This document shows, in pieces, positions 2,114-58,281 of a stretch of 64,000 nt of DNA. The notes beneath the pieces are model-generated. The model made no database searches. It saw only the letters and a program-made list of their open reading frames with translations, and was not told the origin of the DNA. A program made the position numbers and the translations under genes. Numbering within the stretch: position 1 is the first letter of the stretch; every line of letters begins with the position of its first letter. Source of the DNA: Candidatus Woesearchaeota archaeon (GTDB taxonomy: Archaea; Nanobdellota; Nanobdellia; UBA10117; ARS21); assembly GCA_964344705.1 (NCBI GenBank), contig CAYFOG010000003.1, positions 16,715 through 80,714 on the forward strand, in the 5' to 3' direction.

Positions 2114-3636
2114 AAAGAGAATTGAGAAGTATATTATTTTCTGGAAGGGTTTTGATATTAATTTCAGTATTGCTTATGTCTTTGGCAGCAATTTCTCCAA
2201 ATCTAGATGGAGACGGTCTTGAGATTAAGCGAGTGGATGTGGACAGCAGTGCTAGCGTCAACGGAATTGAGGAAGATATGATTTTGTATAGTTTGAATGA
2301 TGTTGTAACAAACGAACTGGCTGATTTTCAAAATGCTATTGGGAATTTCAGGAACGGAGATATAGTTGAGGTTGTGACTGATGCTGGGAGAAGTAGCATT
2401 ATTTATGATAATGGTCTTGGTTTTAGTGTTGGTGAAATCCCAACGTCTAATTTGAAAAAGGGTCTTGATTTGGTTGGAGGAGTTCGAGTTGTTTTGAAAC
2501 CAGATACTTCAGATGAGTCTCAAATCTTGGATATGATTGATTTAATCGAACAGCGATTGAATGTTTTTGGTGTTGCAGATCTTTCAATTAGAAATTCTCA
2601 AGATTTGGAAGGTACAAATTATATTATTACTGAGATTGCTGGGGCTTCCAAGGAAGAAGTTTTAGATTTAGTTGCAAAACAGGGTAAATTTGAAGCTAAG
2701 ATTGGAAACGAAGTGGTCTTTACTGGTGGAACAGATATTAAATCTGTTTGTAGATCTGGCGAATGTTCAGGTATTCCTCTTCAACAGGGTTGCGGTCAGT
2801 CTGGAGATGGTTGGAGTTGTCAGTATTTCTTCAGAGTTGATATTAGTCATGAATCTGCTAGGAAACATGCTGATTTGACTTCAGAGTTGGATGTTGTTGA
2901 TGGTTATTTATCTGAGAAGTTGGATTTGTATTTGGATGATGAATTGGTAAACAGTTTGTATATTTCTGAAGGATTACAAGGTGATATAAGCACTTCCTTT
3001 ACAATTCAAGGGCCTGGAAGTGGTTTGACTGAAGAAGCTGCAATTCGAGATGCATTGGATAGTATGAAGAGAATGCAGACTCTTTTGATTACTGGAAGTT
3101 TACCTTTCTCTGTTGATGTTGAGAGAGTTGATGTTATTTCTCCAACTCTTGGAGAGAACTTCTTCACTAGCGCGTTGTTTGCAATTGTTCTAGCAATCTT
3201 TGCTGTTGGAGGAGTTATTTTTGCCAGATATAGAAAAGCTACGATTTCAATTCCAATCATTATTACTGGATTGAGTGAGGTATTTATCATCCTTGGATTT
3301 GCTGCGCTGATCCGATGGAATTTGGACTTGGCTGCGATTGCAGGAATTATTGCTGCAGTTGGAACTGGAGTGGATGATCAGATTGTTATTACTGATGAAG
3401 TTATGTACGGACGTCGCAATGATGAAAAATGGTTACAGAGAATGAAGAATGCTTTTTTGATTATTTTTGCAGCCTACTTTACAATGGTTGTTGCAATGTT
3501 TCCTCTTTGGTATTTGGGCGCTGGAGTTCTGAGAGGTTTTGCTTTAACAACAATAGTCGGAGTTACAATTGGTGTGTTTGTGACTCGTCCAGCTTATGCA
3601 AAGATGATTGAAATCTTTATGGAGAAAGATGAGTAA
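2110..3636 (+). CDS. secD: protein-export membrane protein SecD
   Basis: 508 aa with N-terminal TM, a large periplasmic domain and a C-terminal SecD/F TM bundle (GTGVDDQIVITDEV); translationally coupled to secF. Confidence 0.7.
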   Translation: MKRELRSILFSGRVLILISVLLMSLAAISPNLDGDGLEIKRVDVDSSASVNGIEEDMILYSLNDVVTNELADFQNAIGNFRNGDIVEVVTDAGRSSIIYDNGLGFSVGEIPTSNLKKGLDLVGGVRVVLKPDTSDESQILDMIDLIEQRLNVFGVADLSIRNSQDLEGTNYIITEIAGASKEEVLDLVAKQGKFEAKIGNEVVFTGGTDIKSVCRSGECSGIPLQQGCGQSGDGWSCQYFFRVDISHESARKHADLTSELDVVDGYLSEKLDLYLDDELVNSLYISEGLQGDISTSFTIQGPGSGLTEEAAIRDALDSMKRMQTLLITGSLPFSVDVERVDVISPTLGENFFTSALFAIVLAIFAVGGVIFARYRKATISIPIIITGLSEVFIILGFAALIRWNLDLAAIAGIIAAVGTGVDDQIVITDEVMYGRRNDEKWLQRMKNAFLIIFAAYFTMVVAMFPLWYLGAGVLRGFALTTIVGVTIGVFVTRPAYAKMIEIFMEKDE

Positions 3637-4801
3637 GGTTCTTTTTGTATTTTTTTAAATCAAATTCCCATTCACAAGTTTTTGGATTGAAGAGTTCAGA
3701 ATAGTTTAATTTCATATTTATTTCTTTATTTTGCTTTCTTCGAAATATTACTTTGTTATCGTAATCCTTATCTATGTATTTTGGAAGAATTTCATTAGAG
3801 ATTTTTGTTTGACTTTCAAGATTTGTTGTTAATCCGATTCTAAGTTTGTTTGATAAATCAGTGGGTAGGTAAAAAGAAGTTATTATTGCCTTTTGTGCAA
3901 TCTCTTTGAATAACTCTTTGATTTGTTCTGGATTTTTTAATCTGATGAATATGTTTGCAACCACATTCTTGTCATCATTGAAAGGTCCGTAAAAAACTCG
4001 GACCTGTCGAAACAATTCATCGTGTGCAAGTTGTATGTCTCGAACAGATCTTTGTACCAACGCAACTCCTGCGCCCTGCCTTTCTCGAATTTTTGATTTT
4101 TTTCGTTTTATGTAATTCCACAAATTGTCTTCCAGATTGTCTCGTATCGCAAACCAAACTTTGTGAGAAGACCATCTCTTTCTTGAATACTCCACAATTA
4201 TTGGTAGAGTTATTGGGTTTTTTTCTATTAGTTTACTTAGTTTTTGTTCTGAAGGTTTTCTTAATGCATAATCAAACAAGGATTCAAAATGAGATGTGTC
4301 ATATGTTTGACTGAATTTGAAATTCCCTTCTGAATCAGTTACTTTGTGGAATGGTAAATAGGAATCTGCGACTTGATTGTAAGGAAATAGCTCAAAATCT
4401 TGAAGCAAATTAAGTTCTTTTGCTTTATTTAGAAATTCTTCCAGTTCTTTTTCTTTTCCTATTGGAATTGGAAAGTGTGTGCCAGTATAATTTACTAGCT
4501 TTGTTGCATTGTATCCGTAAAATGGAACAACGGAATATGGAATTGCAGTTAATAATTTTGGATGTGCTTCTTTTAGAAGAGTGTAAATAGTTTGCAAGTT
4601 TAGGCTTGCATAATTTATTCGGGAATGATAGGCTATATCTTTTCCTAAATACATAAACCATCTTTTGATTGTTCTTTCGCTGACTTTTTGTCCTCGCGTT
4701 TCAAGAAATTTTGATATGTTAAGTGGTGGCCTGATTTTTGGAGTGAAGGTTAAATTGTACATGAACTCTAGAAGCTCCTTGCTATAGGTTCTCAGTGCCA
4801 T
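3617..4801 (-). CDS. hypothetical protein (394 aa, soluble, no recognisable family)
   Basis: Long ORF with AT-rich codon usage consistent with its neighbours. Its stop overlaps the secD 3' end by 20 nt (convergent). No motif recognised. Confidence 0.45.
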   Translation of the reverse strand: MALRTYSKELLEFMYNLTFTPKIRPPLNISKFLETRGQKVSERTIKRWFMYLGKDIAYHSRINYASLNLQTIYTLLKEAHPKLLTAIPYSVVPFYGYNATKLVNYTGTHFPIPIGKEKELEEFLNKAKELNLLQDFELFPYNQVADSYLPFHKVTDSEGNFKFSQTYDTSHFESLFDYALRKPSEQKLSKLIEKNPITLPIIVEYSRKRWSSHKVWFAIRDNLEDNLWNYIKRKKSKIRERQGAGVALVQRSVRDIQLAHDELFRQVRVFYGPFNDDKNVVANIFIRLKNPEQIKELFKEIAQKAIITSFYLPTDLSNKLRIGLTTNLESQTKISNEILPKYIDKDYDNKVIFRRKQNKEINMKLNYSELFNPKTCEWEFDLKKYKKNLTHLSP

Positions 4802-4868
4802 GAAGAATTGTTATGTTCTAAAATAAAATAACTTTTAGTCTGGAACATATACTAAAAAATGAGCGAGA

Positions 4869-5138
4869 TTATCTTCTCGCTCGACGTGCTGTTGTTCGAC
4901 GGGCAGCTGATGCTCGTCTTCTAGCAGTTGTTCTTCGTGCAGCAGTGGTTCTTCGTGCGGTGGATGTTCGTCTCTTAGCTGTTGTTCGTCGTGCACTTGT
5001 TCGTCTTGCCGCTGTAGAACGTCGAGCCGTTGTTCGTCGTCTTGCTGTTGTTCTTTTTGCAGCTGTTCGTCTTGAACGAGTTCTTCTTGAACTGCCTGCA
5101 GAAGATCTTCCGAGAAGTCTTCTTAGAAGTGATCTCAT
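4869..5138 (-). CDS. arginine-rich low-complexity protein, (A-R-R-T-T)n pentapeptide repeats, 89 aa, predicted strongly basic
   Basis: The ORF is encoded by a GC-rich degenerate 15-nt tandem repeat. TTTTATATT (TATA-like) lies 26-34 bp upstream of the ATG on the minus strand, compatible with a leaderless archaeal promoter. Confidence 0.45.
   Translation of the reverse strand: MRSLLRRLLGRSSAGSSRRTRSRRTAAKRTTARRRTTARRSTAARRTSARRTTAKRRTSTARRTTAARRTTARRRASAARRTTARRARR
4880..5110. repeat. GC-rich degenerate 15-nt tandem repeat (about 15 units; plus-strand consensus near GCTGTTGTTCGTCGT)
   Basis: Visible periodicity (gttgttcgtcgt / gttcttcgtgc / gttcgtcttg ...) in an otherwise AT-rich divergent intergenic region. 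Confidence 0.7.
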
Positions 5139-5158
5139 ATAAATCTATAGTCTCTGGA

Positions 5159-5168
5159 ATATAAAAGC
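5159..5168 (-). promoter_or_regulatory. TATA-box-like element for the Arg-rich repeat gene
   Basis: Minus-strand TTTTATATT centred about 26-30 bp upstream of the ATG at 5138. Confidence 0.35.
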
Positions 5169-5211
5169 TTTATGTGGTAACTGTTAAAAATAAGGTTTGA
5201 GAATATAATTT

Positions 5212-6060
5212 ATGGTTTTGGAGTCGCTTACGGGGGCGGAATATGCTGAGAAAAGACCGGCCGAAATGTTTATTGTAGCGTTCGCATATACAACGATTGC
5301 TATCTTGCTTTCATTGTGGGTCTTTGCAGAATACGCTGGTTTGACTATGGTATTTTTTACAGTAATGGCTGCCATACCTTTGATGATTAAATTGATAGTT
5401 CTTGAAGAGCGGAAATTATTCTCACGAGTACATAACACAACTCATCGAGCTACAATACCTTTCTTTATCTTTTTGTTTCTGGGAATGGTTTCAGCATTTA
5501 CTTTCTTTTTTACAGTCTTGCCTGAAGCCACAGTTAATCAGATTTTCAATGTTCAAATATCTACTATTCAAAGTGTTAATGCCAATATTATAAGTCAACT
5601 TTCTGGACAATTCTTTGGAGATTTTTTTCCGTTAGTAATCTTCAATAATCTCAAAGTTATGACTTTTGCTGTATTATTTTCGTTCATTTATGGTTCGGGA
5701 GCAATATTTATTTTGACTTGGAATGCTTCTGTTCTAGGTGTGGCAATTGGAAGTTTGATACGGGAGATTGTTGGCGCTGCTGCAACGAGTGTTGGTGCAG
5801 TAGGCGTTGGTACTTATTTCGGTGCTGTTTCCATAAGCTTTGCCAGATATCTAATTCATGGAATTCCGGAGATTGGAGCATATTTTGTTGCCGGACTCGC
5901 GGGAGGAATAATCTCGGTCGGAGTTCTCAGGTATCAACTGTTTGATGAGAAATTTATGGTAGTTATGAAAGATGCTCTATTTTTACTAATTGTTGCAATC
6001 ATATTGGTCTTGATTAGTGGTGCAACAGAGGTTTTGATTTCGCCACTTTTCTACGCATAG
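5212..6060 (+). CDS. polytopic membrane protein, possibly DUF95/SpoIIM-like
   Basis: 282 aa with multiple hydrophobic helices; segment IFNNLKVMTFAVLFSFIYGSGAIFILTWNASVLG resembles SpoIIM-family cores. Confidence 0.35.
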   Translation: MVLESLTGAEYAEKRPAEMFIVAFAYTTIAILLSLWVFAEYAGLTMVFFTVMAAIPLMIKLIVLEERKLFSRVHNTTHRATIPFFIFLFLGMVSAFTFFFTVLPEATVNQIFNVQISTIQSVNANIISQLSGQFFGDFFPLVIFNNLKVMTFAVLFSFIYGSGAIFILTWNASVLGVAIGSLIREIVGAAATSVGAVGVGTYFGAVSISFARYLIHGIPEIGAYFVAGLAGGIISVGVLRYQLFDEKFMVVMKDALFLLIVAIILVLISGATEVLISPLFYA

Positions 6061-14164: not shown

Positions 14165-15646
14165 ATGGTTGATTATCTTCGTAGAGTCTTAAAGGGCGGA
14201 TCTTACTATTTTATTGGATTGATTATTGCCGGAATTGTTGCATATACTTCTCGAGTTGTGCTGGTTCGAAGTTTGGCTCCTGAGGACTATGGTTTATTTG
14301 CTGCAATGTTTACTGCCATTGCATTTTTTTTGTTTTTTAGGAATTTCGGATTGAATGTTTCTATTGGAAAATTTATCCCTCAATTTAAAGTTAGGAGAAA
14401 ATATTCTGAAATCAAAACTTCAGTAATATCAGTATTATTCTTTCAATTATTAATTTCAAGTTTGTTTGTTGTTCTGTTTTGGTTGAGTGCAGACTTCTTA
14501 GCTTTGAATTATTTCAAAGATGCTAGAGCAAGTTTTCTAATTCGTGTGTTCTCATTTTATTTTATTACAAGTATATTTTTCAAGAATCTCTCTTCATTCT
14601 TCAAAGGTTTTCAAAAGAATCGATTACAATCTTTGGTTGAACCGATAAAAAATATTAGCATACTTACAATGATTGTAATTTTTCTTTACTTGGGTTATGG
14701 TGTTCTTGCTCCAATTCTTGCTTATGTTTTTGCAGGCCTGGTTTTATTGTTACTATTTATTTATCCAGTTTTTAAGACATTCAATTTCAGGAGGTATCCT
14801 TTCAAAGAGTTGAGCGTGTTCAAACGAATGTTTCTATTTGGTCTTCCAGTAATGATGACTGGTGTTGGAAACAAATTTGTTAGTTATTTTGACACTTTGA
14901 TGCTGACTTATTTTTCGAGCTTGGCTGAAGTTGGAGCATATAATATTGTTCTTCCAACAGCATTGCTTTTTATGTTGCCTGCCTCGGCGATTGGTGCGGT
15001 CTTTATGCCGTTAATTTCTGAATTGTCTGCACGCAAAGATTTTGAACGTGTTAAAGTTGGCATGAGTTTGTTGTACAGATATTTGTACATGTTTAGCGCT
15101 CCAATAATTTTTAGCTTATTTATCTTCGCAGATATTCTTATTGAAAAATTGTTTGGTCCGGGTTATTTAATTGGTATTTTGGCATTTAGAATTTTGTTAG
15201 TTGGAGTTCTGTTCAATATGTTGTCTGAATTGAATAATCAATATCTGATTGGTACTGGTTGCCCTAAGAAAGTATTTTGGGTTGTATTCTTTGGATCGGT
15301 TCTCAATGTTGGTTTGAATATCTTCTTAATTCCTGTTTACGGAATTTCTGGTGCAGCAGTTGCTACCAGTTTGAGTTATCTTTTGATGTTTTCCTTATCG
15401 ACTGCCAAAGTTATTCGTGGAACTAGAATGAAACTTCCAATATTCAACTGGTTTGCACTAATACTTGGTTTGATGGCTTTTATTGGTGTGGTGTATTTCA
15501 TTAAAGGTCTAATTTCTTGGAATGTGTGGTTGGAAGGTATTGTTTCATTATCTATCGGATATGTTGTTTATTTGTATGTTTTGAAGATTCTAGGTATTTT
15601 GAATGTTGAAGAAATTATGTCGTTTGTTCGAAGAATTACTAGTTAG
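14165..15646 (+). CDS. Wzx/RfbX-type oligosaccharide flippase (MOP superfamily)
   Basis: 493 aa with about 12-14 TM, polysaccharide biosynthesis protein-like. Confidence 0.65.
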   Translation: MVDYLRRVLKGGSYYFIGLIIAGIVAYTSRVVLVRSLAPEDYGLFAAMFTAIAFFLFFRNFGLNVSIGKFIPQFKVRRKYSEIKTSVISVLFFQLLISSLFVVLFWLSADFLALNYFKDARASFLIRVFSFYFITSIFFKNLSSFFKGFQKNRLQSLVEPIKNISILTMIVIFLYLGYGVLAPILAYVFAGLVLLLLFIYPVFKTFNFRRYPFKELSVFKRMFLFGLPVMMTGVGNKFVSYFDTLMLTYFSSLAEVGAYNIVLPTALLFMLPASAIGAVFMPLISELSARKDFERVKVGMSLLYRYLYMFSAPIIFSLFIFADILIEKLFGPGYLIGILAFRILLVGVLFNMLSELNNQYLIGTGCPKKVFWVVFFGSVLNVGLNIFLIPVYGISGAAVATSLSYLLMFSLSTAKVIRGTRMKLPIFNWFALILGLMAFIGVVYFIKGLISWNVWLEGIVSLSIGYVVYLYVLKILGILNVEEIMSFVRRITS

Positions 15647-15771
15647 TACAACTTAAGATATTTATCAGTTATGAGTTTTATATCAAAGTCTTTTGCTCGG
15701 ATAATTACTAGTTAGTACAACTTAAGATATTTATCAGTTATGAGTTTTATATCAAAGTCTTTTGCTCGGAT
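15634..15771. repeat. perfect 69-bp tandem duplication (2 units: 15634-15702 and 15703-15771) spanning a convergent gene junction
   Basis: Identical string AATTACTAGTTAGTACAACTTAAGATATTTATCAGTTATGAGTTTTATATCAAAGTCTTTTGCTCGGAT occurs twice head-to-tail. Copy 1 carries the flippase stop codon; copy 2 carries the last 10 codons and stop of the minus-strand GT4 gene. Confidence 0.9.
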
Positions 15772-16797
15772 TTTTCCGTTCTTGGAGATTTTTTTCTGGA
15801 GTTCTTGATTGTTTAGCAATTCTGAAACTTTTTTGTATAAATCATTTGAATCTTTTGGTTTTGATAGTAGAATGTTTTTTCTATTTTTGAATAGTTCTTG
15901 TGTTTCTGGAAGTTTGGAAGTTATTGTAGGTATTCCCATCGCCATGCTTTCGATTACTGACAGCGGATTTGATTCTGTTGCATCTAAATTTGGATAAGGA
16001 AATACTGTTATGTGTGCTTCCGATAGATAATCAATTAGGTTCTTTTCGTCTAGAATAATTTTATAGTTTTTTTGATTTTCTAGTTGTTTATCTATTTTCT
16101 TCTTGTTCTCTTTGAACGCCTCTGAGTGTTTGCATAGAAACGTGAAGACTGTGTCGTCTTTGAATTTTGGAATTATATCTACAAGATATTTGTATCCTTT
16201 TCTGTCTGCAAGCGGACCGTAGAATAGAACTATTTTTTTGGTTTTTGACTTGGTTTTTGATTTTACATTGAACTTTTTCAAATCTATATGTGAATTGATG
16301 TATCGAATTTTGGATTTTGACGTTCCATATTTTGTTATGATTTTTTCAATTGATTTGCTTCCAAGCGTAACGTTGGATAATAGATTTAAAATTGGTGATG
16401 CGAAATATGTTCTTTTGTATTTTGTTTTTGATTTCAGAGTATGTATTCTTTTTACTTTTTGGAAAGGTTTTCCAATTATTGTTCTTATTGCAAGCAGTGG
16501 AGATGAACTGAATCCATGAATTACATCAAATTTTACATTTTCTACCAGTTCAACTTTTCTTATTCCAGTCAGAGTAAATAATAGTTTGTTAACTTTGTCA
16601 CCAAAGGGCATCTTTATTCTGTAAACTTTGACTCCATCTATTCTTTCTTTTTCAAGTAGCGGACGTCGATGGTCCGTAATTATTATTGCATTGTGCCCGC
16701 GGGAATTGAGTTCCTTTGCTAATTGGAGTGTTGATAAATTTGTGGCTTCTACTTTATTCTTATGAAATGCATTTATTACAAGAGCTATGTTTTTCAT
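15712..16797 (-). CDS. GT4-family glycosyltransferase
   Basis: C-terminal GT-B motif ...ESNPLSVIESMAMGIPTITS...; 361 aa. Confidence 0.7.
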   Translation of the reverse strand: MKNIALVINAFHKNKVEATNLSTLQLAKELNSRGHNAIIITDHRRPLLEKERIDGVKVYRIKMPFGDKVNKLLFTLTGIRKVELVENVKFDVIHGFSSSPLLAIRTIIGKPFQKVKRIHTLKSKTKYKRTYFASPILNLLSNVTLGSKSIEKIITKYGTSKSKIRYINSHIDLKKFNVKSKTKSKTKKIVLFYGPLADRKGYKYLVDIIPKFKDDTVFTFLCKHSEAFKENKKKIDKQLENQKNYKIILDEKNLIDYLSEAHITVFPYPNLDATESNPLSVIESMAMGIPTITSKLPETQELFKNRKNILLSKPKDSNDLYKKVSELLNNQELQKKISKNGKIRAKDFDIKLITDKYLKLY

Positions 16798-35140: not shown

Positions 35141-35659
35141 TTACATCTCAAAAGATATTGAGTCTCTTCTTTGTTTTTCTATTACTTCATTTCCTTCTTT
35201 GGTTAAATAATATTTTCTTGGTCTTGTTCCGGTTGTTGCTACAAAACCTCTATATTCAAGTTCAATTAATTTGTTGCGAATAGTTCTTTCGGATTTATCT
35301 AGAGAATATGCTAATTTTAATTGAATTGGGGATACTGCAAAATGTACTGAGTCTGCTTTTCCTTGTTTGAGTAATATTAGGAATTGTAGCTCAGACATTC
35401 TGAACATTGCAGGTTTTATATTTGCGATTGGTTGTTGCGAGGTATATTTTTGAGTTGTGGAAAGTTTTGGAATTTCGTTTTTCCAATTTCCACTAATTTC
35501 CAAAGATTTTTCCAATAGTTTTTCTTGTTTTTCTTGGAGATTTTTGAGACTTTCTTGGAGATTTTTTATTGTTGTTTCACTTTGAGAAAGCTTTGATTTG
35601 AGGTGCTCTATGTCGATTTTATGGTCGTTGAGAATTTCGCGTATAGCTTTTGGAATCAT
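35141..35659 (-). CDS. coiled-coil + C-terminal winged-helix DNA-binding protein (the ORF track extends it to a TTG at 35782)
   Basis: C-terminal SELQFLILLKQ...ERTIRNKLIELEYRGFVATTGTRPRKYYLTKEG is a wHTH. The first ATG is at 35659, with a TTTTTATA TATA-like element about 30 bp upstream. The upstream extension is encoded by the TTTCCA repeat DNA. Confidence 0.5.
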   Translation of the reverse strand: MIPKAIREILNDHKIDIEHLKSKLSQSETTIKNLQESLKNLQEKQEKLLEKSLEISGNWKNEIPKLSTTQKYTSQQPIANIKPAMFRMSELQFLILLKQGKADSVHFAVSPIQLKLAYSLDKSERTIRNKLIELEYRGFVATTGTRPRKYYLTKEGNEVIEKQRRDSISFEM

Positions 35660-35689
35660 GCGTTTTAGACTTGATAATCGTATAAAAAC

Positions 35690-35910
35690 ATTTATCGTTT
35701 GGAAAAAGGTTTCCAAAGTTTTTCCACTAATTTCCAAAGTTTTTCCACAAAAAGACCCCTTTATTTCCACTGGAGTTTCCAATTGAATTGGTTAAAAACC
35801 ACCTTACTTAATGCTTATTGTTTATTTTTTGTCCATTTTGTTTGGAAAGAGTTTTGGAAAAGTTTTGGAAAGAGTTTCCAAAGTTTTTCCACTAATTTCC
35901 ACTGTTTTCC
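35690..35910. repeat. array of TTTCCA(C/A)/GTGGAAA-type direct and inverted repeats (ORB-like), including an exact 27-bp duplicate
   Basis: TTTCCAAAGTTTTTCCACTAATTTCCA occurs exactly at 35710-35736 and 35875-35901. TTTCCACTAATTTCCAAAG also occurs at 35487-35505 inside the ORF. Multiple TTTGGAAA/TTTCCAAA 8-mers lie in both orientations between the Cas4-like and wHTH genes. Confidence 0.8.
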
Positions 35911-36620
35911 AAAGAAGTTTGTATGTGTGTGCTGGATTCTTTTTTGCTAAAACAAGTATCGTAAAATTCGCAATAATTACAGAAATATGATTCTTCTCTT
36001 ACAGGAGGTGTTGATGTTTTTAGCGCATTAGCTAATACTGTTCCTCTTGCTTCCAAATAACCCAGCATATTTCGCTTCTCAACCTCAAAGGTTTTTATCT
36101 TACTTAAGGAAAAGTAAACTATCATTAATTTTTTGACATCTTTTTGTTGGGATTCAGGTAACATTGAGAAGTATGATTGTATCTGCATAGTATGTTCGGG
36201 TTTGGGTTGTTTTGGTATTCGTTCTGTTGTCTTGAATTCATACATTATGTTGTTGGAAAATACGTCAATAAATCCTATGGCATCGAATACAGAAAAAGGT
36301 GCTTGGAGAAATACTTCATTTTCTTCTTCAGGAATGTGTTCTTGGAAGAAATTATGAATTGCGTGTCCTCTTGAAAATATCCAAAGTTTTTCCAAAGATA
36401 TTGGGATTTCTTCAGTTAAATCATAATAGGACTTTCTGAGGCAGTGTCCAGTTAGTCGAGTTACTCCAAAACGTGGTTTCTTGTTTGGATCTTTCTTTTT
36501 TCTTGGCTTTTGTCCGGCAAGAAGTGCTCTAAGGACAACATTTGGGTAGTTTTCAAAATTACTTTCTCTTACTTCATCAATATGTCTTTCCACACCATCT
36601 GGACAAATAATGTTACTCAT
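35892..36620 (-). CDS. Cas4/RecB-family PD-(D/E)xK exonuclease with 4-Cys Fe-S cluster (stand-alone; Dna2-nuclease-like)
   Basis: All Cas4 signatures are present in order: GVTRLTGHCLRKSYY (N-terminal Cys), GHAIH, AIGFIDVF (motif II Asp), YEFKT (ExK), QIQSYF (QxxxY), and C-terminal CNYCEFYDTC (CxxCx5C). Its 8-nt overlap with the PolD DP2 stop implies an operon. Confidence 0.8.
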   Translation of the reverse strand: MSNIICPDGVERHIDEVRESNFENYPNVVLRALLAGQKPRKKKDPNKKPRFGVTRLTGHCLRKSYYDLTEEIPISLEKLWIFSRGHAIHNFFQEHIPEEENEVFLQAPFSVFDAIGFIDVFSNNIMYEFKTTERIPKQPKPEHTMQIQSYFSMLPESQQKDVKKLMIVYFSLSKIKTFEVEKRNMLGYLEARGTVLANALKTSTPPVREESYFCNYCEFYDTCFSKKESSTHIQTSLENSGN

Positions 36621-39600
36621 TTATGAAACCTCCAAGACTTATTTGTTTTGTAGCATCTTTCCCGAAGACTGATTCGACTCTGCTGCTAAACAATCTTATC
36701 GATTCTCTCAAGTATTCACTAGTACCTTCAATTTCAATTAAGTTTAAAGTTGGCTCCAAATATTTCTTTACTGAACCTTCACTTATTGTGTATATTACTT
36801 TCGGTTTGTTGCATTTTACACACTTACCTGCGAGAGGTGGTCGACGATATTTTTCATTACAAGCAATGCAACGGAATCTTTGCATTGTGAACTTGCGCAT
36901 GTTTCCCTTAAGATCTCTTATGAAGTGTCCGTTGATTATTAGCTCACCAACTTTGTGTAAATCTACAGCACGTATTTTGTCAGCTAAATCGAGCTGCCCT
37001 TCCATTTTTTCCACCATTGTTGGAAGATATTTATATGCAGAAACATTTACTCCTTTGTTCATGTCTGAAACGGTATGTGTGAATCCGTGATTTTGATATT
37101 GATCTTCTTGGTCAATTACATCACCTATCGATTTAACTCTTACCTCCCAAGGATATTTCATTCCCAATGTTGCTTCATAAAACTCTAAAGGATAATCCCA
37201 AGTAATATTTAAATCGTATACTTCATCGTCAACTTCTTTGGAATTTAATATCGTAGATATAACTAAGGGTGCGTCCATGCTTCGGGCACCTCTTCGGTCA
37301 GGTAAAAAGTCTCTTGAGAAATTTAGGAATGCATCCAAAGTTAACATTATTGCTGTTTCTTCTCCATCTAAATCTCTACGTTGTGCTGCATGCCACATTG
37401 GATGGGCGATTACTCCTGAAATATTTGAGAATCCAATTATCCGACCAATGATTCCTGCTGACGTGTGTGGGGCAAGTCCGATTATTAGTTGTCCGATTAG
37501 ATCTTCATTTGTTGCGATGTTGTAGAATGCAGGCAATTTGTATAAATTCACAAGTTCTTCATCAACAAAATCTGCAACTCGTTTGAACACTGAGGTTGCG
37601 GATTCAATTCCTAAGAATTCTTCGTTCGGTAGAATTACGTCTTGAGGGAATATTTCCACCAATTGGGTTGGTTTCGTTAGTGGTTGGTTATGAACATCTT
37701 TTGTATATCCTAATTTATTTGCTTTCTTGACAGATAGTCCAATTTCTTTTGGTGTAAAGTGTGTTGCTCCCAATTCAGTTCCGTCATATCTTACTGTTCC
37801 ATCTTTGTTTACTCGGAGCGAGTGTTTGGCGCGTAGTAAACCTTTGGTTGGGTGTTCAACGTATCGGAATTTGTTCATTGTCGCTCGAACGCCTTTAATT
37901 AGTTTAGGGAAAGGTCCGTCCCATTCTTTTTTTATTCTCTTTGAAAGTTCAGGTAGAGCATACTTTCTCCTTTCGTAAGGGACGCAGGTTGGTGTTTCAG
38001 GTGTTGAATATTTTTTCTTTGTTTTGTAATCCACATATTGTTGTTGAGTATTTTCAGAATTACAGTGTTCGCACTTCTGAAATATTGTTGATTTGTTGCA
38101 GTCCAAACATTTGATTATTGGGAAGTCTGCAGTTACATGTCCAACAGTAATTGCTTCATTGAATGATCTCAATCGTCCACCTTCATTTCCAACCGGGAAT
38201 AAGAAATTTGGTGAGCCTTTCAAATCTCGCATTTTTGCCTTTTCAGGTCTTCCCATTCTTGCGCCGATTCCTGTTCCAAATTTATTTCTGAATTTTATGT
38301 CTGTTCTGAAGTGTGTATTTAGAATATTTTGATTTAATTTTGTTAAGATTATTTTATTGTCTTTTATCGTATGCGGACAACCAATTAATTCTAGCAATCT
38401 TTTTTCGGGCGCATCTGCAGGCATTTCTGATTTTATGTAATTTTGAAGTTGGATTTTTTGTTTTTCTTGGAGAGCGTCTAAATAGAATGTGAACTCTGGA
38501 TGTAGGGGAATGTTAAAATCTTTTGAGAGTTTGATAGCTGTGTCAAAATTTATTTCGGGTGGGATAAACGTGTTGAAAAAATCCTTTGGTAAATTGTGAT
38601 ACGTTTTCGGGTTGTCTTTGATTGCTTTCTTCAATTCCTGCGCCCACCATTCTGGACAATATCCTGCAGGAACGAGAAAGTGTCCGTTTTCTGTGAATTC
38701 TCCCGGAGATATTAGTATGTCTCCCAAATATAATATTTCTGCGATTTCTTTTGTGAGTTCCTTTGCCTCTTCTTCGGTTTTTGGTTTGTGTACTGATCCG
38801 TCTTTAAGTTTTACAATTGGTCCTTCAATTGAATCGCAAGAAGTAAGTGAAGTTGATTTCCCGGGTCGCTCAACCCTTAGTTGTGTTCCGATAGCCAAAT
38901 AATTGTTTAAGACTTGCATTGTTATTGGAGATATTGCCCAAGATCCATGACCTGTTAATCTTGACCTTCCATATCTTTGTCTGAAGCCACCCTGTCTTAA
39001 TGGGTGTGTGAATACGGGCCGTCCTGCAACAATTTCTGCAATATATGAATAATTTGGTTTGAGTTTGTTGTTGTCCTTTTCCTCAGTTTTCTGTCCATCT
39101 GCTTGTTCATGAATTTGTTTTTTTAGCTCTTGGTAATCATTTAGCCACTGCCAGTCTAAATCAAAATCTTTGCCCCAATTATTTAGCTTTTTCATTACTT
39201 TTCCGCCTTTTAGTGGAAGCGCGTCAGTCAACATGAGCGCAACACCGCCTCGAATTCTGTCAGTTTCAATTCGTGAGAGTCCTTTGAAATTTGATACTGT
39301 TAATTCAGAAGTTGGATCTCCGTCGAGCTCCACGGGAAGATTTGAAATTATGTGTCTAATTTCTTCTTCAGTTGGTTTGTATTGTTTTCTCTCAACTCGT
39401 TCGTAATAATCCATGACTTCTGTGTACATTCTTTTGATTTCTTGAGTCGTTGGATCATATTTTTCTATTCCTTGCTTTTTTCGGACGTAATCTGCAATTA
39501 CTGTTGTGACTGCTGACGCTGTTGCTCCACCGCCTCGAATCGGTCCAGCATAGTAAAGTGCTAAATAATCCTTTCCGTCGTTTCGTTTTTTGAATTTTAC

Positions 39601-40008
39601 ATCGATTAAGCCTTCTAAAGGTGCTGAAACAACGCCTTGTGTAATGTATGCGAAGCCGGTTCTGATGCCAATATTTATTGCAGTTATTTTGTTCTCAAAT
39701 TTACAAAATTTTTCTGAGCTTATTTCATCCGCCAGAACGAGCGCTACGCGCCAATCTCCAAAACCATATTGTTTTTCAAGTTCGCTGATTCTTTCAACAA
39801 TTCCGCTTCCAATTAAATTTGGAGATATGGATCCCATGATTGCTTCAACCCTTTCTGCGACAGAAGCAGCAATTGGAATATCACATTTGGTTTGTGGGTC
39901 AATTCCTGCTTTTCTTGCTTGGTTTGCTAATTCACGTAGTTCAAGAGTTTTTGATTTGAGTGTTGAAAAATATTCTTCGATATGTTTGGGTGCAACAAGA
40001 TTTGACAT
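36613..40008 (-). CDS. polC: DNA polymerase II (PolD) large catalytic subunit DP2
   Basis: 1131 aa with the archaea-specific DP2 architecture and C-terminal zinc-ribbon cysteines (CIACNEKY...CVKCNKPK). Length indicates no intein. Confidence 0.85.
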   Translation of the reverse strand: MSNLVAPKHIEEYFSTLKSKTLELRELANQARKAGIDPQTKCDIPIAASVAERVEAIMGSISPNLIGSGIVERISELEKQYGFGDWRVALVLADEISSEKFCKFENKITAINIGIRTGFAYITQGVVSAPLEGLIDVKFKKRNDGKDYLALYYAGPIRGGGATASAVTTVIADYVRKKQGIEKYDPTTQEIKRMYTEVMDYYERVERKQYKPTEEEIRHIISNLPVELDGDPTSELTVSNFKGLSRIETDRIRGGVALMLTDALPLKGGKVMKKLNNWGKDFDLDWQWLNDYQELKKQIHEQADGQKTEEKDNNKLKPNYSYIAEIVAGRPVFTHPLRQGGFRQRYGRSRLTGHGSWAISPITMQVLNNYLAIGTQLRVERPGKSTSLTSCDSIEGPIVKLKDGSVHKPKTEEEAKELTKEIAEILYLGDILISPGEFTENGHFLVPAGYCPEWWAQELKKAIKDNPKTYHNLPKDFFNTFIPPEINFDTAIKLSKDFNIPLHPEFTFYLDALQEKQKIQLQNYIKSEMPADAPEKRLLELIGCPHTIKDNKIILTKLNQNILNTHFRTDIKFRNKFGTGIGARMGRPEKAKMRDLKGSPNFLFPVGNEGGRLRSFNEAITVGHVTADFPIIKCLDCNKSTIFQKCEHCNSENTQQQYVDYKTKKKYSTPETPTCVPYERRKYALPELSKRIKKEWDGPFPKLIKGVRATMNKFRYVEHPTKGLLRAKHSLRVNKDGTVRYDGTELGATHFTPKEIGLSVKKANKLGYTKDVHNQPLTKPTQLVEIFPQDVILPNEEFLGIESATSVFKRVADFVDEELVNLYKLPAFYNIATNEDLIGQLIIGLAPHTSAGIIGRIIGFSNISGVIAHPMWHAAQRRDLDGEETAIMLTLDAFLNFSRDFLPDRRGARSMDAPLVISTILNSKEVDDEVYDLNITWDYPLEFYEATLGMKYPWEVRVKSIGDVIDQEDQYQNHGFTHTVSDMNKGVNVSAYKYLPTMVEKMEGQLDLADKIRAVDLHKVGELIINGHFIRDLKGNMRKFTMQRFRCIACNEKYRRPPLAGKCVKCNKPKVIYTISEGSVKKYLEPTLNLIEIEGTSEYLRESIRLFSSRVESVFGKDATKQISLGGFINE

Positions 40009-54974: not shown

Positions 54975-55670
54975 TTAAAACAAACTGAATTTTCGTTTTT
55001 CAGTTGCTTCTTCAATATTTTCTTGAGTGATTTTGAAATTTACTTCTTTTCTTGGAATTGAGCGATGTTTGAGAAGTTTAAGAATTCGCCCAGTTTCTCG
55101 AATTTCTAATTTTACTATACATTTTGATGTGTATTTCATTAAGTCTCCACCAACCATTTTGATATCATTCTTTCTTTCAAAGTCAGCATAGACTTGATTT
55201 GTTAGCAGAATTGGAATTACTAATTTGTGAGATATTTTCCTGAGTATGCTGAGTTGTCGAGCCATTTCTTTATTTACGTCGTAGGCTTCTCTTTCTCCAA
55301 GCTCCAATCTATAAAGCATAGATATGGAATCGACCACAATTAGTTTCGGTTTATGTTCTTCTGAAAATTTTTCAAGACTATTGAAGAGGTCTGTTTGCTC
55401 TTTGAACGTTGTTGGCTTGAAGATTATTAGATTTTTTAATCTGCGCTCATGAGTCTCAGGAAACATTTGCTTTACTCTGTCTATTGAAAAGCCACCTTCT
55501 GTGTCAATGAAGATAATTTTCTTGTTTTTTGCGTTGTAAAGTGCAGCGAGAATTGCTATATTAGTTTTTCCCGATCCACTTGGCCCATAGATTGTTGTGG
55601 TAACTTCATTTTCTAGTCCACCTTCCAGAATATTGTCGATAAGTTCAGAACCCGTACTACATCGTTTCAT
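54975..55670 (-). CDS. radB: RadB / KaiC-like RecA-superfamily ATPase (archaeal Rad51 paralog)
   Basis: Walker A TIYGPSGSGKTN and Walker B LIVVDS; 231 aa, the size of RadB rather than RadA. Confidence 0.75.
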   Translation of the reverse strand: MKRCSTGSELIDNILEGGLENEVTTTIYGPSGSGKTNIAILAALYNAKNKKIIFIDTEGGFSIDRVKQMFPETHERRLKNLIIFKPTTFKEQTDLFNSLEKFSEEHKPKLIVVDSISMLYRLELGEREAYDVNKEMARQLSILRKISHKLVIPILLTNQVYADFERKNDIKMVGGDLMKYTSKCIVKLEIRETGRILKLLKHRSIPRKEVNFKITQENIEEATEKRKFSLF

Positions 55671-55702: not shown

Positions 55703-55948
55703 TTGTATATGGTAGTATCTACTCGTAAGAAAGATTATATGAATAAATATAACAAGCGACCTGAAGTTAAAGCGCGAAAAGCAGAATACATGCGCAAAGT
55801 TAGATCTAAGGCTGATCGAGAAGCAGCAGAACGACTTGTCAATTCTTTGTTAGAACAAGGTTTTGAAAATTGGGCGTTCGATATTGCTCAAGAAAGAGCT
55901 CCACATATGTTAGTAACTGCCAAAAATCGAGTTAGAAAGAGAAAGTAA
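55703..55948 (+). CDS. small basic hypothetical protein
   Basis: 81 aa, Lys/Arg-rich (KRPEVKARKAEYMRKVRSK...RVRKRK); no recognised family. Confidence 0.3.
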   Translation: MYMVVSTRKKDYMNKYNKRPEVKARKAEYMRKVRSKADREAAERLVNSLLEQGFENWAFDIAQERAPHMLVTAKNRVRKRK

Positions 55949-55995: not shown

Positions 55996-58281
55996 ATGCC
56001 TAAAGCTGAAATTATCTTAAAAGTTCAAGAAGCCGTTCAGGACGACGTTGATAAAGGTGTTGTCCGTGTTGAAAATGAATATTTGAAAAAGCTTGGAATT
56101 GAACAAGGCGATTTTGTTGAAATTCAAGGTGACAAAAAGACTGTCGCTATTGCAGGTAGAGCTTTTCCAGCAGATTTGGGTCTTGGAACTATTCGAATGG
56201 ATCCATTGAGTAGAAAAAATGCTGGAACAAGCGTTTCCGAAAGAGTAACTATTCGCGCAGCTGAAGTTGAAGTTGCAAAAAAAGTTACTTTGGCACCAGC
56301 ACAGAAAGGTGTCCGAATTAAAGCTCCAGCGCAAATGTTTCAACGAGCACTTCTCAGACGACCAATCTCTAAAGGAGATATAGTTACAATCAGCACCTCA
56401 AGACGAAGACGTTTCAATAATCGTGGAGATCCTCTGATGGAATTTGCGGAAGCACTTGCAGGTTTGGATATTGGTGGCGCATTACCATTTATGTCGGGAC
56501 TGCGGTTTGTAGTTGTTAGTGCAACCCCTAAAGGGGCGGTTCTGATTACTGAAGACACTAAGATTGAATTGAGATCTGAGGCCGTACAAATTTCAGAAGA
56601 TGCAGTTCCAGATGTTTCTTATGAGGACATTGGTGGACTTAAAGGTGAAGTTGAAAAAGTCCGTGAAATGATTGAAATTCCAATGAAGCGTCCAGAACTA
56701 TTTGATCGTTTAGGAATTCAACCTCCAAAAGGAGTCCTTCTTTACGGACCGCCCGGAACAGGTAAGACTTTGTTAGCTAAAGCAGTCGCCTCGGAATCTC
56801 AAGCATCTTTTCACTTAATAAATGGTCCAGAAATTATGAGTAAGTTTGTTGGAGATGCTGAAAAGAAAATTAGAGCCATTTTCGATGATGCTGAAAAGGA
56901 AGCCCCAAGCATTATATTCATTGATGAAATTGACGCAATCGCACCGAAGCGAGAAGAAAGTTATGGTGAAGTTGAGCGAAGAGTAGTTGCACAGTTATTG
57001 ACTCTTATGGATGGAATGAAGGGTCGAGGAAAAGTTATCGTCATTGCAGCCACAAATCGGCAGGACGCACTTGATCCAGCACTTAGACGGGGTGGAAGAT
57101 TTGATAGAGAAATTGAAATTGGTGTTCCAAACAAAGAAGGTCGATTACAAGTTTTGAAAATTCATACCAGAAATATGCCGCTAGCAAGAAATGTCAGTTT
57201 GAAGGAATTAGCAGATGTTACTCATGGTTTTGTTGGGGCAGACTTAGAAGCGCTAGCTAAAGAGGCCGCGATGAACGTTATTCGTAGAGTTATTATGAAG
57301 CACGATTTGAAAGATGACGAACCCCTTACTGATGAAATTATGAAGAAACTAGTAGTTAGAATGGCAGATTTCAAAGATGCATTGAAGAATGTTACTCCTT
57401 CAGCTATGCGTGAAATTTTAGTTGAAACTCCAAATGTTCCTTGGGAACGAATTGGAGGTCTGGAGAAAACTAAGGCAGAATTAATTGAATCTGTTGAGTG
57501 GCCAATCAAGAATAGAAAGATGTTCACAGATATGGGAATTAGACCTCCGCGAGGAATTTTACTTTATGGGCCTCCAGGAACAGGTAAGACTTTGTTAGCT
57601 AAAGCAGTCGCAACTGAAAGCGAGGCAAATTTTATTTCTGTTAAAGGTCCAGAACTGCTGAACAAATGGGTTGGAGAATCTGAGAAAGCAGTTCGAGAAA
57701 TATTCAAGAAAGCTAAGCAAGTTGCACCGGCAGTTATTTTCTTTGACGAAATTGATTCTATTGCGGGATCTCGAGGAGCAAGAGAAGGTTCAAAGGTTTC
57801 CGAGAGTGTTGTCAATCAAATTTTAACCGAAATTGACGGTGTTGAAGAACTTAGTGATGTTGTAGTTATCGCTGCGACGAACAGACCCGAATTGGTTGAT
57901 GCTGCATTACTTCGGCCTGGACGATTTGACCGACACTTGTTAGTAAGTCCTCCAAATAAAGAGGCAAGAATTGAAATTCTAAAAGTTCACACTAAAGATG
58001 TTCCTTTAGCCAAAGAGATTTCATTGTCCAATTTAGCCAAAGATATGGATGGATATTCTGGAGCAGATATTGAAGCAGTAGTCCGAGAATCGGCGATGAT
58101 TGTTTTGCGAGAAATCAAAGAAGGAAAAAAAGGCAAAGGAAAAGTTACAAAGAAACATTTTGCTGAAGCTTTGAAGAAAGTTAAACCTTCATTGAGCAAG
58201 CTTGAACTCGATAAGTATCGTGAAGCACTTGAAGCGGCATCTGTAGCTGCGCCAAAGAATGGTCCGAGCTATATGGGTTAA
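55996..58281 (+). CDS. cdc48: CDC48/VCP-type AAA+ ATPase (double AAA cassette)
   Basis: N-domain plus two AAA modules with Walker A GPPGTGKT (twice) and Walker [17 protein letters not shown]; 761 aa. TATA-like cttttaaaattt about 30 bp upstream. Confidence 0.95.

Follow-up and report, generated by a model that had tools for sequence, protein, structure and literature searches.

A GC-rich island in a DPANN archaeal genome very probably encodes a small arginine-rich repeat protein

Introduction

Does a short GC-rich island between two divergent genes of a DPANN archaeon encode a protein and, if so, on which strand, under which signals and with what likely function? The question arises at positions 4802-5211 of the window, by which we mean the whole stretch of 64,000 nucleotides analysed here. 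This segment fills the gap between a gene encoding a protein of 394 amino acids (3617-4801, minus strand; hereafter the 394-aa gene) and a SpoIIM-like gene (5212-6060, plus strand), whose product is of a membrane protein type. An earlier note on this DNA preferred to read the segment as a minus-strand gene for a basic ARRTT-type protein, preceded by a TATA-like promoter. The present analysis backs that first choice through codon composition, selection, and the conservation of start, stop, promoter and terminator, and we consider it very probable that the island is a real, selected protein-coding gene.

Genomic context of the island

The genes surrounding the island are archaeal and include SecF/SecD, an AglB/STT3 oligosaccharyl-transferase, a Hel308-type helicase, and DNA polymerase D. 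Near-identical and related contigs, referred to below by L numbers, come from marine metagenomes and are labelled as Nanoarchaeota, Candidatus Nanoarchaeia or Candidatus Woesearchaeota archaeon.

The GC content at positions 4880-5109 is 0.513, compared to a window mean of 0.354. This ranks the island, as first described for 4880-5110, among the 0.04% most GC-rich 230-nt segments and makes it the highest GC peak in the 64 kb. The same positions hold the most extreme AT skew of the window, with a T-poor minus strand. The setting had been described as a divergent intergenic region, and the flanking genes are indeed divergent; however, the island appears to form a transcription unit of its own, the third here, running in the same direction as the 394-aa gene on the minus strand. 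The whole cassette (4852-5176, minus strand) comprises about 325 bp with the predicted promoter, ORF and terminator, and is present or absent as a block among relatives.

At its 3′ end the 394-aa gene shares 20 nt with the end of SecD. Its product had no match in Pfam, NCBIfam, PHROGs or PADLOC, and the sole distant relative found, in L015, is 32% identical and located in a different context. The idea of a mobile-element hotspot was pursued through the structure of this protein, but the AF2 model built with 8 sequences reached a pLDDT of 46, which was too poor for a fold search.

Open reading frame and protein composition

The minus-strand ORF anticipated from the first inspection was found at positions 4869-5138, stop codon included. 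It starts with ATG, opens with MRSLLRRLLGRSS, continues in A-R-R-T-T(-A) units of five or six residues and ends in RRARR; its full translation of 89 aa is MRSLLRRLLGRSSAGSSRRTRSRRTAAKRTTARRRTTARRSTAARRTSARRTTAKRRTSTARRTTAARRTTARRRASAARRTTARRARR. The extreme basicity claimed for this protein is evident in its composition: 34 R (38%), 18 A, 18 T, 10 S, 2 K, and no D or E, with a net charge of about +35 and a mass of about 10.3 kDa. In the genome R/(R+K) is 0.32 and Lys is twice as common as Arg, compared to 34 R and 2 K in this protein.

Three parts can be distinguished in the protein. The N-terminal module MRSLLRR(L/I)LGRSS (5100-5138, minus strand) is conserved; a short amphipathic helix with a break at Gly after it is predicted for this module. 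Close variants retain it through synonymous changes (CTA/TTA, AGA/CGA, CTC/TTA), and in L040 it reads MRRLLRRLIGRKSS. The C-terminal end RRAR(R/K) is likewise conserved, the final residue being always R or K among the variants. Between the two lies the length-variable repeat region (4884-5099, minus strand), the GC-rich, T-poor core of the island, in which residue lags of 5, 6, 11 and 12 are enriched.

This region had been described as about 15 units of 15 nt, a regularity that did not hold. Autocorrelation showed identity peaks at 15 and 18 nt, corresponding to 5 and 6 residues, and also at 33/36 and 51/54 nt, with z of about 3-5 against codon shuffles, which indicates a mixture of five- and six-residue units. 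TRF detected weak arrays of 18 nt (2-2.6 copies) and 33 nt (3.3 copies, 67% match), and the units are imperfect, with matches of 67-94%. Arginine occurs in clusters of RR or RRR only, with T, S or A between them and no long Arg blocks.

Coding strand and reading frame

As the minus strand is T-poor, three of six frames read through the repeat without a stop; the length and openness of an ORF therefore prove nothing here by themselves. Codon structure is more informative. In the ARRTT frame GC1/GC2/GC3 is 0.46/0.92/0.12, compared to 0.46/0.33/0.28 in the genome (54 long ORFs of the window). The choice among Arg, Ala, Thr and Ser codons is that of the genome; for arginine, AGA/CGA/CGT are used at 0.50/0.38/0.12 in the ORF and at 0.44/0.27/0.10 in the genome. 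The GC island is thus a consequence of the choice of Arg, Ala and Thr as amino acids, while the genome's AT bias prevails at third codon positions. This AT pressure on third positions argues against a recent foreign origin of the gene.

The search for similar proteins in related genomes, proposed in the earlier note, was productive: ten lineage variants, the one of the window included, were gathered from syntenic contigs. All ten are intact and share the same ATG and the same TAA. Their lengths are 69, 73, 73, 80, 85, 87, 89, 90 and 95 aa, one 85-aa protein being encoded by two DNA variants, and the indels among them (1, 4, 5, 12 and 17 residues) are all in frame. Variable columns are distributed over codon positions as 29/11/30 (chi-square p = 0.007), and 27 codon columns vary only synonymously in the ARRTT frame, compared to 4-15 in the other frames.

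The Nei-Gojobori dN/dS was 0.31 in the ARRTT frame (bootstrap CI 0.23-0.42) and 0.62-1.61 in the five other frames, values to be read with some bias in favour of the ARRTT frame because the codon alignment was derived from its protein alignment. An independent nucleotide alignment placed the gaps at essentially identical positions. Among the other frames, the Glu/Gln/Asp frame gave 0.80, the plus-strand Leu/Val/Arg frame 0.62 (CI 0.46-0.82), and the rest 0.65-1.6. Against the distant homologue of L040 (62% nucleotide identity), dN/dS in the ARRTT frame was 0.21. The codon-position check on both strands, also suggested in the earlier note, thus showed periodicity and purifying selection that fit the minus-strand ARRTT frame. 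The gene uses the codon preferences of its own genome and is under purifying selection.

The coding strand had been regarded as uncertain because of a Leu/Val/Arg-rich repeat ORF on the plus strand, and this ORF could be the true gene. It exists in the window (4945-5142, GTG start, 65 aa), and gene calling placed an antisense gene of 90 aa in L005-L007 (3644-3916) and one of 136 aa in L016-L019 (3558-3968), the latter overlapping the start of SpoIIM. In the window type, L022 and L040 the gene callers picked the sense ORF, and in L020-L021 (3638-4000) they predicted no gene at all. Yet neither start nor stop of the plus-strand frame is conserved, and an ATG is missing. In L016 the frame continues into SpoIIM, in L020 it is uncalled, and no promoter lies upstream of it at the right distance. 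Its dN/dS of 0.62 compared to 0.31 in the sense frame also speaks against it, and we consider a plus-strand gene extremely improbable.

Promoter, terminator and transcription unit

The minus-strand arginine-rich gene is preceded by an archaeal TATA box, TTTTATATT, at positions 5158-5166 (minus strand). A TATA-like sequence had been noted upstream of the ORF, and that observation stands; the distance of 26-34 bp given for it does not, as the box lies 20-28 nt upstream of the ATG, counted from its A at 5138. TTTTATA is invariant in 10/10 variants, the distant L040 among them. Elsewhere in the window, 16/20 matches to TATA-like heptamers upstream of genes start between -33 and -26 from the ATG, and those of the island gene start at -28/-27. 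The mRNA implied by this spacing is leaderless or nearly so. Adjoining the box, at what would be the BRE position, is an upstream element, CACATAAAGC (5167-5176, minus strand), conserved as CACATAA(A/G)G(C/T) in the nine close variants; CA(C/T)AA-like motifs precede the TATA box of other window genes as well. The promoter segment is single-copy in the window. The number of matches in a sigma-70 promoter scan was that expected by chance, and such a scan is not meaningful for an archaeon.

At the other end of the gene, the hairpin GAGCGAGA-agataa-TCTCGCTC (4861-4882, minus strand) carries the TAA stop codon within its loop. With 8 pairs, 5 of them GC, it is the best terminator-like site in 1-20 kb. 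All nine close variants share the identical stem, and L040 has GAGCGAG-12 nt-CTCGCTT, with a larger loop. A T6 run follows 3′ of the hairpin (4854-4859, minus strand) and is likely an archaeal transcription stop. A T-rich run follows the hairpin in every variant, mostly as T6-T7; in L022 it is broken (TTTCTTTTT). The 394-aa gene has a TATA-like region of its own downstream of the island, also present in relatives without the island. From the TATA box and the hairpin with its T-run, the arginine-rich gene is predicted to form its own transcription unit.

The same signals would equally suit a small RNA. If the element were non-coding, as a gene for such an RNA, a satellite, or a contingency repeat prone to slippage, the ORF would be incidental; a structured or satellite element and a hypervariable contingency locus had been offered as alternatives in the earlier note. 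The repeats are real, and the T-poor strand keeps several frames open. Such an element, however, would not account for the strict three-base structure (GC2 0.92, GC3 0.12) and the frame-specific selection. Rfam gave no relevant match at E <= 1, and the RNA fold had a z of -0.96, with 34/200 shuffles folding as well, so that a structured RNA or satellite is disfavoured. A hypervariable or fast-switching contingency locus is disfavoured too, as the units are imperfect, the copy number is stable within a lineage, and none of the indels shifts the frame. Within-lineage alleles are identical across independent samples (5 copies of the window type, 4 of the L005 type, and 6 of the L016 type). That the island is non-coding is, in our view, very improbable.

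Distribution and history of the gene

Homologues of the protein-coding gene were sought with DNA-pattern and synteny searches within the clade, and gene states were mapped on a SecD tree rooted with distant relatives. L044 and L042, whose SecD proteins are 54% and 65% identical to that of the window, possess neither extra gene, and their SecD-SpoIIM gap measures 35-37 bp. L040 (SecD 73%) harbours an 87-aa homologue, MRRLLRRLIGRKSSVATKSRTRRVAARRTTSRTRATSTRKRASTARRTTARRSTAARRTRAKTAARRTTAARRTTARKRTSARRARK, between SecD and SpoIIM, and lacks the 394-aa gene. Three contigs of one inner clade (L012, L009 and L008) possess the 394-aa gene only, with a spacer of 93-94 bp in which TTCCCAC is followed by 7-8 nt and TATGTTC; in relatives having the island the spacer is 363-479 bp. 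Both genes are present in the clade of the window, with the exception of L029, which has the arginine-rich gene only. The 394-aa gene is thus absent from L040, L042, L044 and L029, and is itself an insertion specific to some lineages.

The simplest account is that the arginine-rich gene was gained once, that the 394-aa gene was gained later, and that each was cleanly lost once. L029 and L040 retained the arginine-rich gene although its 394-aa neighbour is absent; the two genes vary independently and hence form no functional pair. The loss in the sister clade of L008, L009 and L012 shows that the arginine-rich gene is dispensable. Every copy found has SecD (or the 394-aa gene) on one side and SpoIIM on the other, and within the clade covered by the searches the gene is confined to one locus in one subclade of marine Nanoarchaeota/Woesearchaeota-type DPANN archaea.

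Viral contigs (IMG/VR) were scanned with the hairpin, the 5′ DNA, and two degenerate N-terminal patterns, and none of them matched. A back-translated RRTTAARRTTAR pattern did match two viral contigs, and both matches were rejected, as they are antisense to poly-serine and have stops in the ARRTT frame. L045 (4385-5035) encodes an 805-aa viral protein with a poly-serine run of several hundred residues, the antisense of which gives RRTTAA-type repeats with stops. L046 (1248-1541) has the same antisense repeat pattern and is likewise unrelated to the protein of the window. In metagenome contigs a degenerate N-terminal pattern, which missed the L040 type because codon 3 differs, retrieved only the same clade and chance ORFs of 14-20 aa. 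With a single locus and no true viral matches, no sign of mobility was seen.

This history would also suit a young ORF that is transcribed and translatable but of no real use, a proto-gene formed by repeat expansion and drifting to loss. The gene is an orphan with no relatives detected outside one subclade, it was cleanly lost in one clade, and its low-complexity sequence readily changes length. A useless ORF would not be expected to show dN/dS values of 0.2-0.3 over a SecD divergence down to 73% identity, or to keep its N- and C-terminal motifs, promoter and terminator with 10/10 variants intact. We regard this explanation as distinctly unlikely and favour a gene maintained by selection.

Database searches

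Protein homology searches with the ORF, among them phmmer against all representatives and a search of PDB, gave no match, and PHROGs and PADLOC had no match to the arginine-rich protein. In a collection of 15 billion protein sequences, 0/5 of the sense-frame variants looked up were present. The negative protein search is uninformative, because the variants are absent from the collection and composition correction removes the score. A literature search on arginine-rich proteins in DPANN lineages found nothing relevant. The only database resemblances were of the Hc2 type and both sub-threshold: Pfam HC2 (PF07382) reached 17.6 bits where the cut-off is 40, and for NCBIfam histone_lik_HC2 (NF038052) the score was 21.7 bits with a cut-off of 135. 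These scores reflect composition and not family membership, and they give no evidence of common descent.

Predicted structure and comparison with known basic proteins

The single-sequence AF2 model of the protein has a helix at residues 2-10, a break at G-R-S, and a long helix at 14-88 (mean pLDDT 89). The hydrophobic moment of the N-terminal helix is 0.56. We give this prediction little weight, and it is doubtful that the long predicted helix, at +35 and without counter-charges, would form in isolation. Two opposite arginine stripes along the helix were considered and rejected, because the basic residues are spread evenly around it (resultants 0.05-0.2).

The chlamydial histone H1-like protein Hc2 (HctB) and BpH1 of Bordetella are DNA-binding proteins built of basic pentamers with an occasional hexamer, and their length varies from strain to strain through gain and loss of units (PMC2848022). 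Similar to them, the arginine-rich protein is acid-poor and strongly basic, is composed of tandem pentamers with occasional hexamers, has Ala and Thr or Val between basic pairs, and varies in length (here 69-95 aa) by in-frame gain or loss of units. Unlike in Hc2, the basic residue is Arg (34 R, 2 K) instead of Lys, and the pentamers are not Lys/Ala-rich; the protein is also half the size or less (69-95 aa compared to 165-237 aa), is archaeal with an archaeal promoter, and carries a distinct conserved N-terminal amphipathic helix.

Protamines and the baculovirus protein P6.9 are small, dominated by Arg, contain Ser/Thr, lack acidic residues, and condense DNA. With 89 aa, 38% Arg and 0 D/E, the present protein has the hallmarks of a protamine, being small, acid-free and at least 30% Arg, and by analogy it would be expected to act in the same way, through charge neutralisation and compaction of nucleic acid. 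It differs from protamines in having Arg pairs or triplets every 5-6 residues instead of blocks of 4-6, in being Ala/Thr-rich and predicted to be helical, in its prokaryotic host, and in the absence of any sequence relationship. Short basic repeats that bind polyanions such as DNA or polyphosphate are also described for the KPAA repeats of AlgP and the PAKKA tails of mycobacterial HupB and Ku (PMC9239181, PMC5676037, PMC3553676). Those repeats are Lys/Pro-based and mostly tails on folded domains, whereas here a stand-alone Arg/Thr repeat is found. The arginine-rich protein is outside any described family and resembles Hc2, BpH1 and protamines in design only.

An Arg content of 38%, the lack of acidic residues, and the even charge lead to the expectation that the protein binds a polyanion. 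Among nucleic-acid binders arginine is more typical than lysine, and provided that the protein is made, it would probably bind nucleic acid. The partner might instead be polyphosphate granules, acidic lipids or the cell envelope. For the first of these there is a parallel in AlgP of Pseudomonas, a basic H1-like repeat protein that is reported to space polyphosphate granules (PMC9239181), and the predicted uniform spread of charge with no sequence-specific fold would suit any of these partners. Polyphosphate genes were not seen near the locus and the basic residue is Arg rather than Lys, which make a polyanion other than nucleic acid quite improbable.

The protein could also be real and directed at a host or competitor, as a cell-penetrating or antimicrobial-like polycation of an episymbiotic DPANN cell, or act as a self-toxic peptide. 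Its composition is like that of arginine-rich penetrating or toxic repeat peptides, and its gene is dispensable and limited to certain lineages. Broad toxicity through aberrant condensation is described for positively charged repeat peptides (PMC10028949), which would fit as well. Such a role is less compatible with an N-terminus (MRSLLRRLLGRSS) that offers no signal peptide or hydrophobic segment. Moreover, no secretion, immunity or antitoxin gene travels with the gene, whose neighbours are SecD, SpoIIM and AglB, with the 394-aa gene varying independently, and PADLOC gave no match. We consider a toxin unlikely.

Other features of the window

Three further features of the window were recorded. 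At 15619-15771 lie 2.2 copies of a 69-nt unit with 95% identity, spanning the ends of the convergent ORFs 14165-15646 (plus strand) and 15712-16797 (minus strand); the 3′ end of one or both frames thus lies within duplicated sequence. Dense repeats of 10-12 nt of the TTTCCA(A/C) type, with inverted TTGGAAA forms, occupy 35453-35911. Their clusters straddle the start of a 213-aa coiled-coil-like ORF (35141-35782, minus strand), occur within it as well, and adjoin a Cas4-like nuclease gene (35892-36620) and the gene for the large subunit of DNA polymerase D (36613-40008). These repeats could be protein-binding sites, either origin-like or regulatory. Finally, a Lys/Arg-rich ORF of 79 aa (55709-55948, plus strand; 28% K+R, 13% D+E) is located in the 325-nt gap between 54975-55670 (minus strand) and 55996-58281 (plus strand) and may be another small unannotated gene.

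Proposed function and significance

Taking the evidence on the arginine-rich gene together, we lean towards a selected arginine repeat gene of DPANN archaea whose product of 69-95 aa would coat or condense nucleic acid, by analogy with protamines and Hc2. The gene would be autonomous and read from the minus strand in the ARRTT frame, its leaderless ORF being served by a TATA box and by a hairpin followed by a T-run. Its product would be an acid-free polycation of about +35, consisting of an N-terminal amphipathic helix, a run of five- and six-residue units, and an RRAR(R/K) end. Evenly spread guanidinium groups would bind DNA or RNA non-specifically, and charge neutralisation would compact or coat the polymer as in protamines, P6.9 and Hc2. 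The N-terminal helix may serve self-association or membrane contact, and the number of repeats would tune the length of the binding surface.

A further proposal is put forward tentatively, as a possibility that we consider rather unlikely in its entirety: the gene would be an orphan, possibly born de novo through expansion of a 15-18-nt unit after the split from the relatives with adjoining SecD and SpoIIM, and would now be an arginine-based archaeal counterpart of protamines and Hc2 that compacts chromatin or RNA in ultrasmall cells. To our knowledge, a class of arginine-based, protamine- or Hc2-like nucleoid proteins has not been described in Archaea.

Genes of this kind are systematically missed, because HMMER-type searches return blank, none of the five variants looked up is in the collection, and gene callers disagree on the strand. 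The locus also shows cleanly, and in a way that can be dated, how an orphan gene of low complexity was gained once, lost once, and changed in length under selection. If the proposed function holds, the protein would be an archaeal, Arg-based analogue of the bacterial Lys-rich H1-like proteins and of eukaryotic and viral protamines, of independent origin in a group of uncultivated, ultrasmall cells, the DPANN archaea, about whose chromatin little is known.
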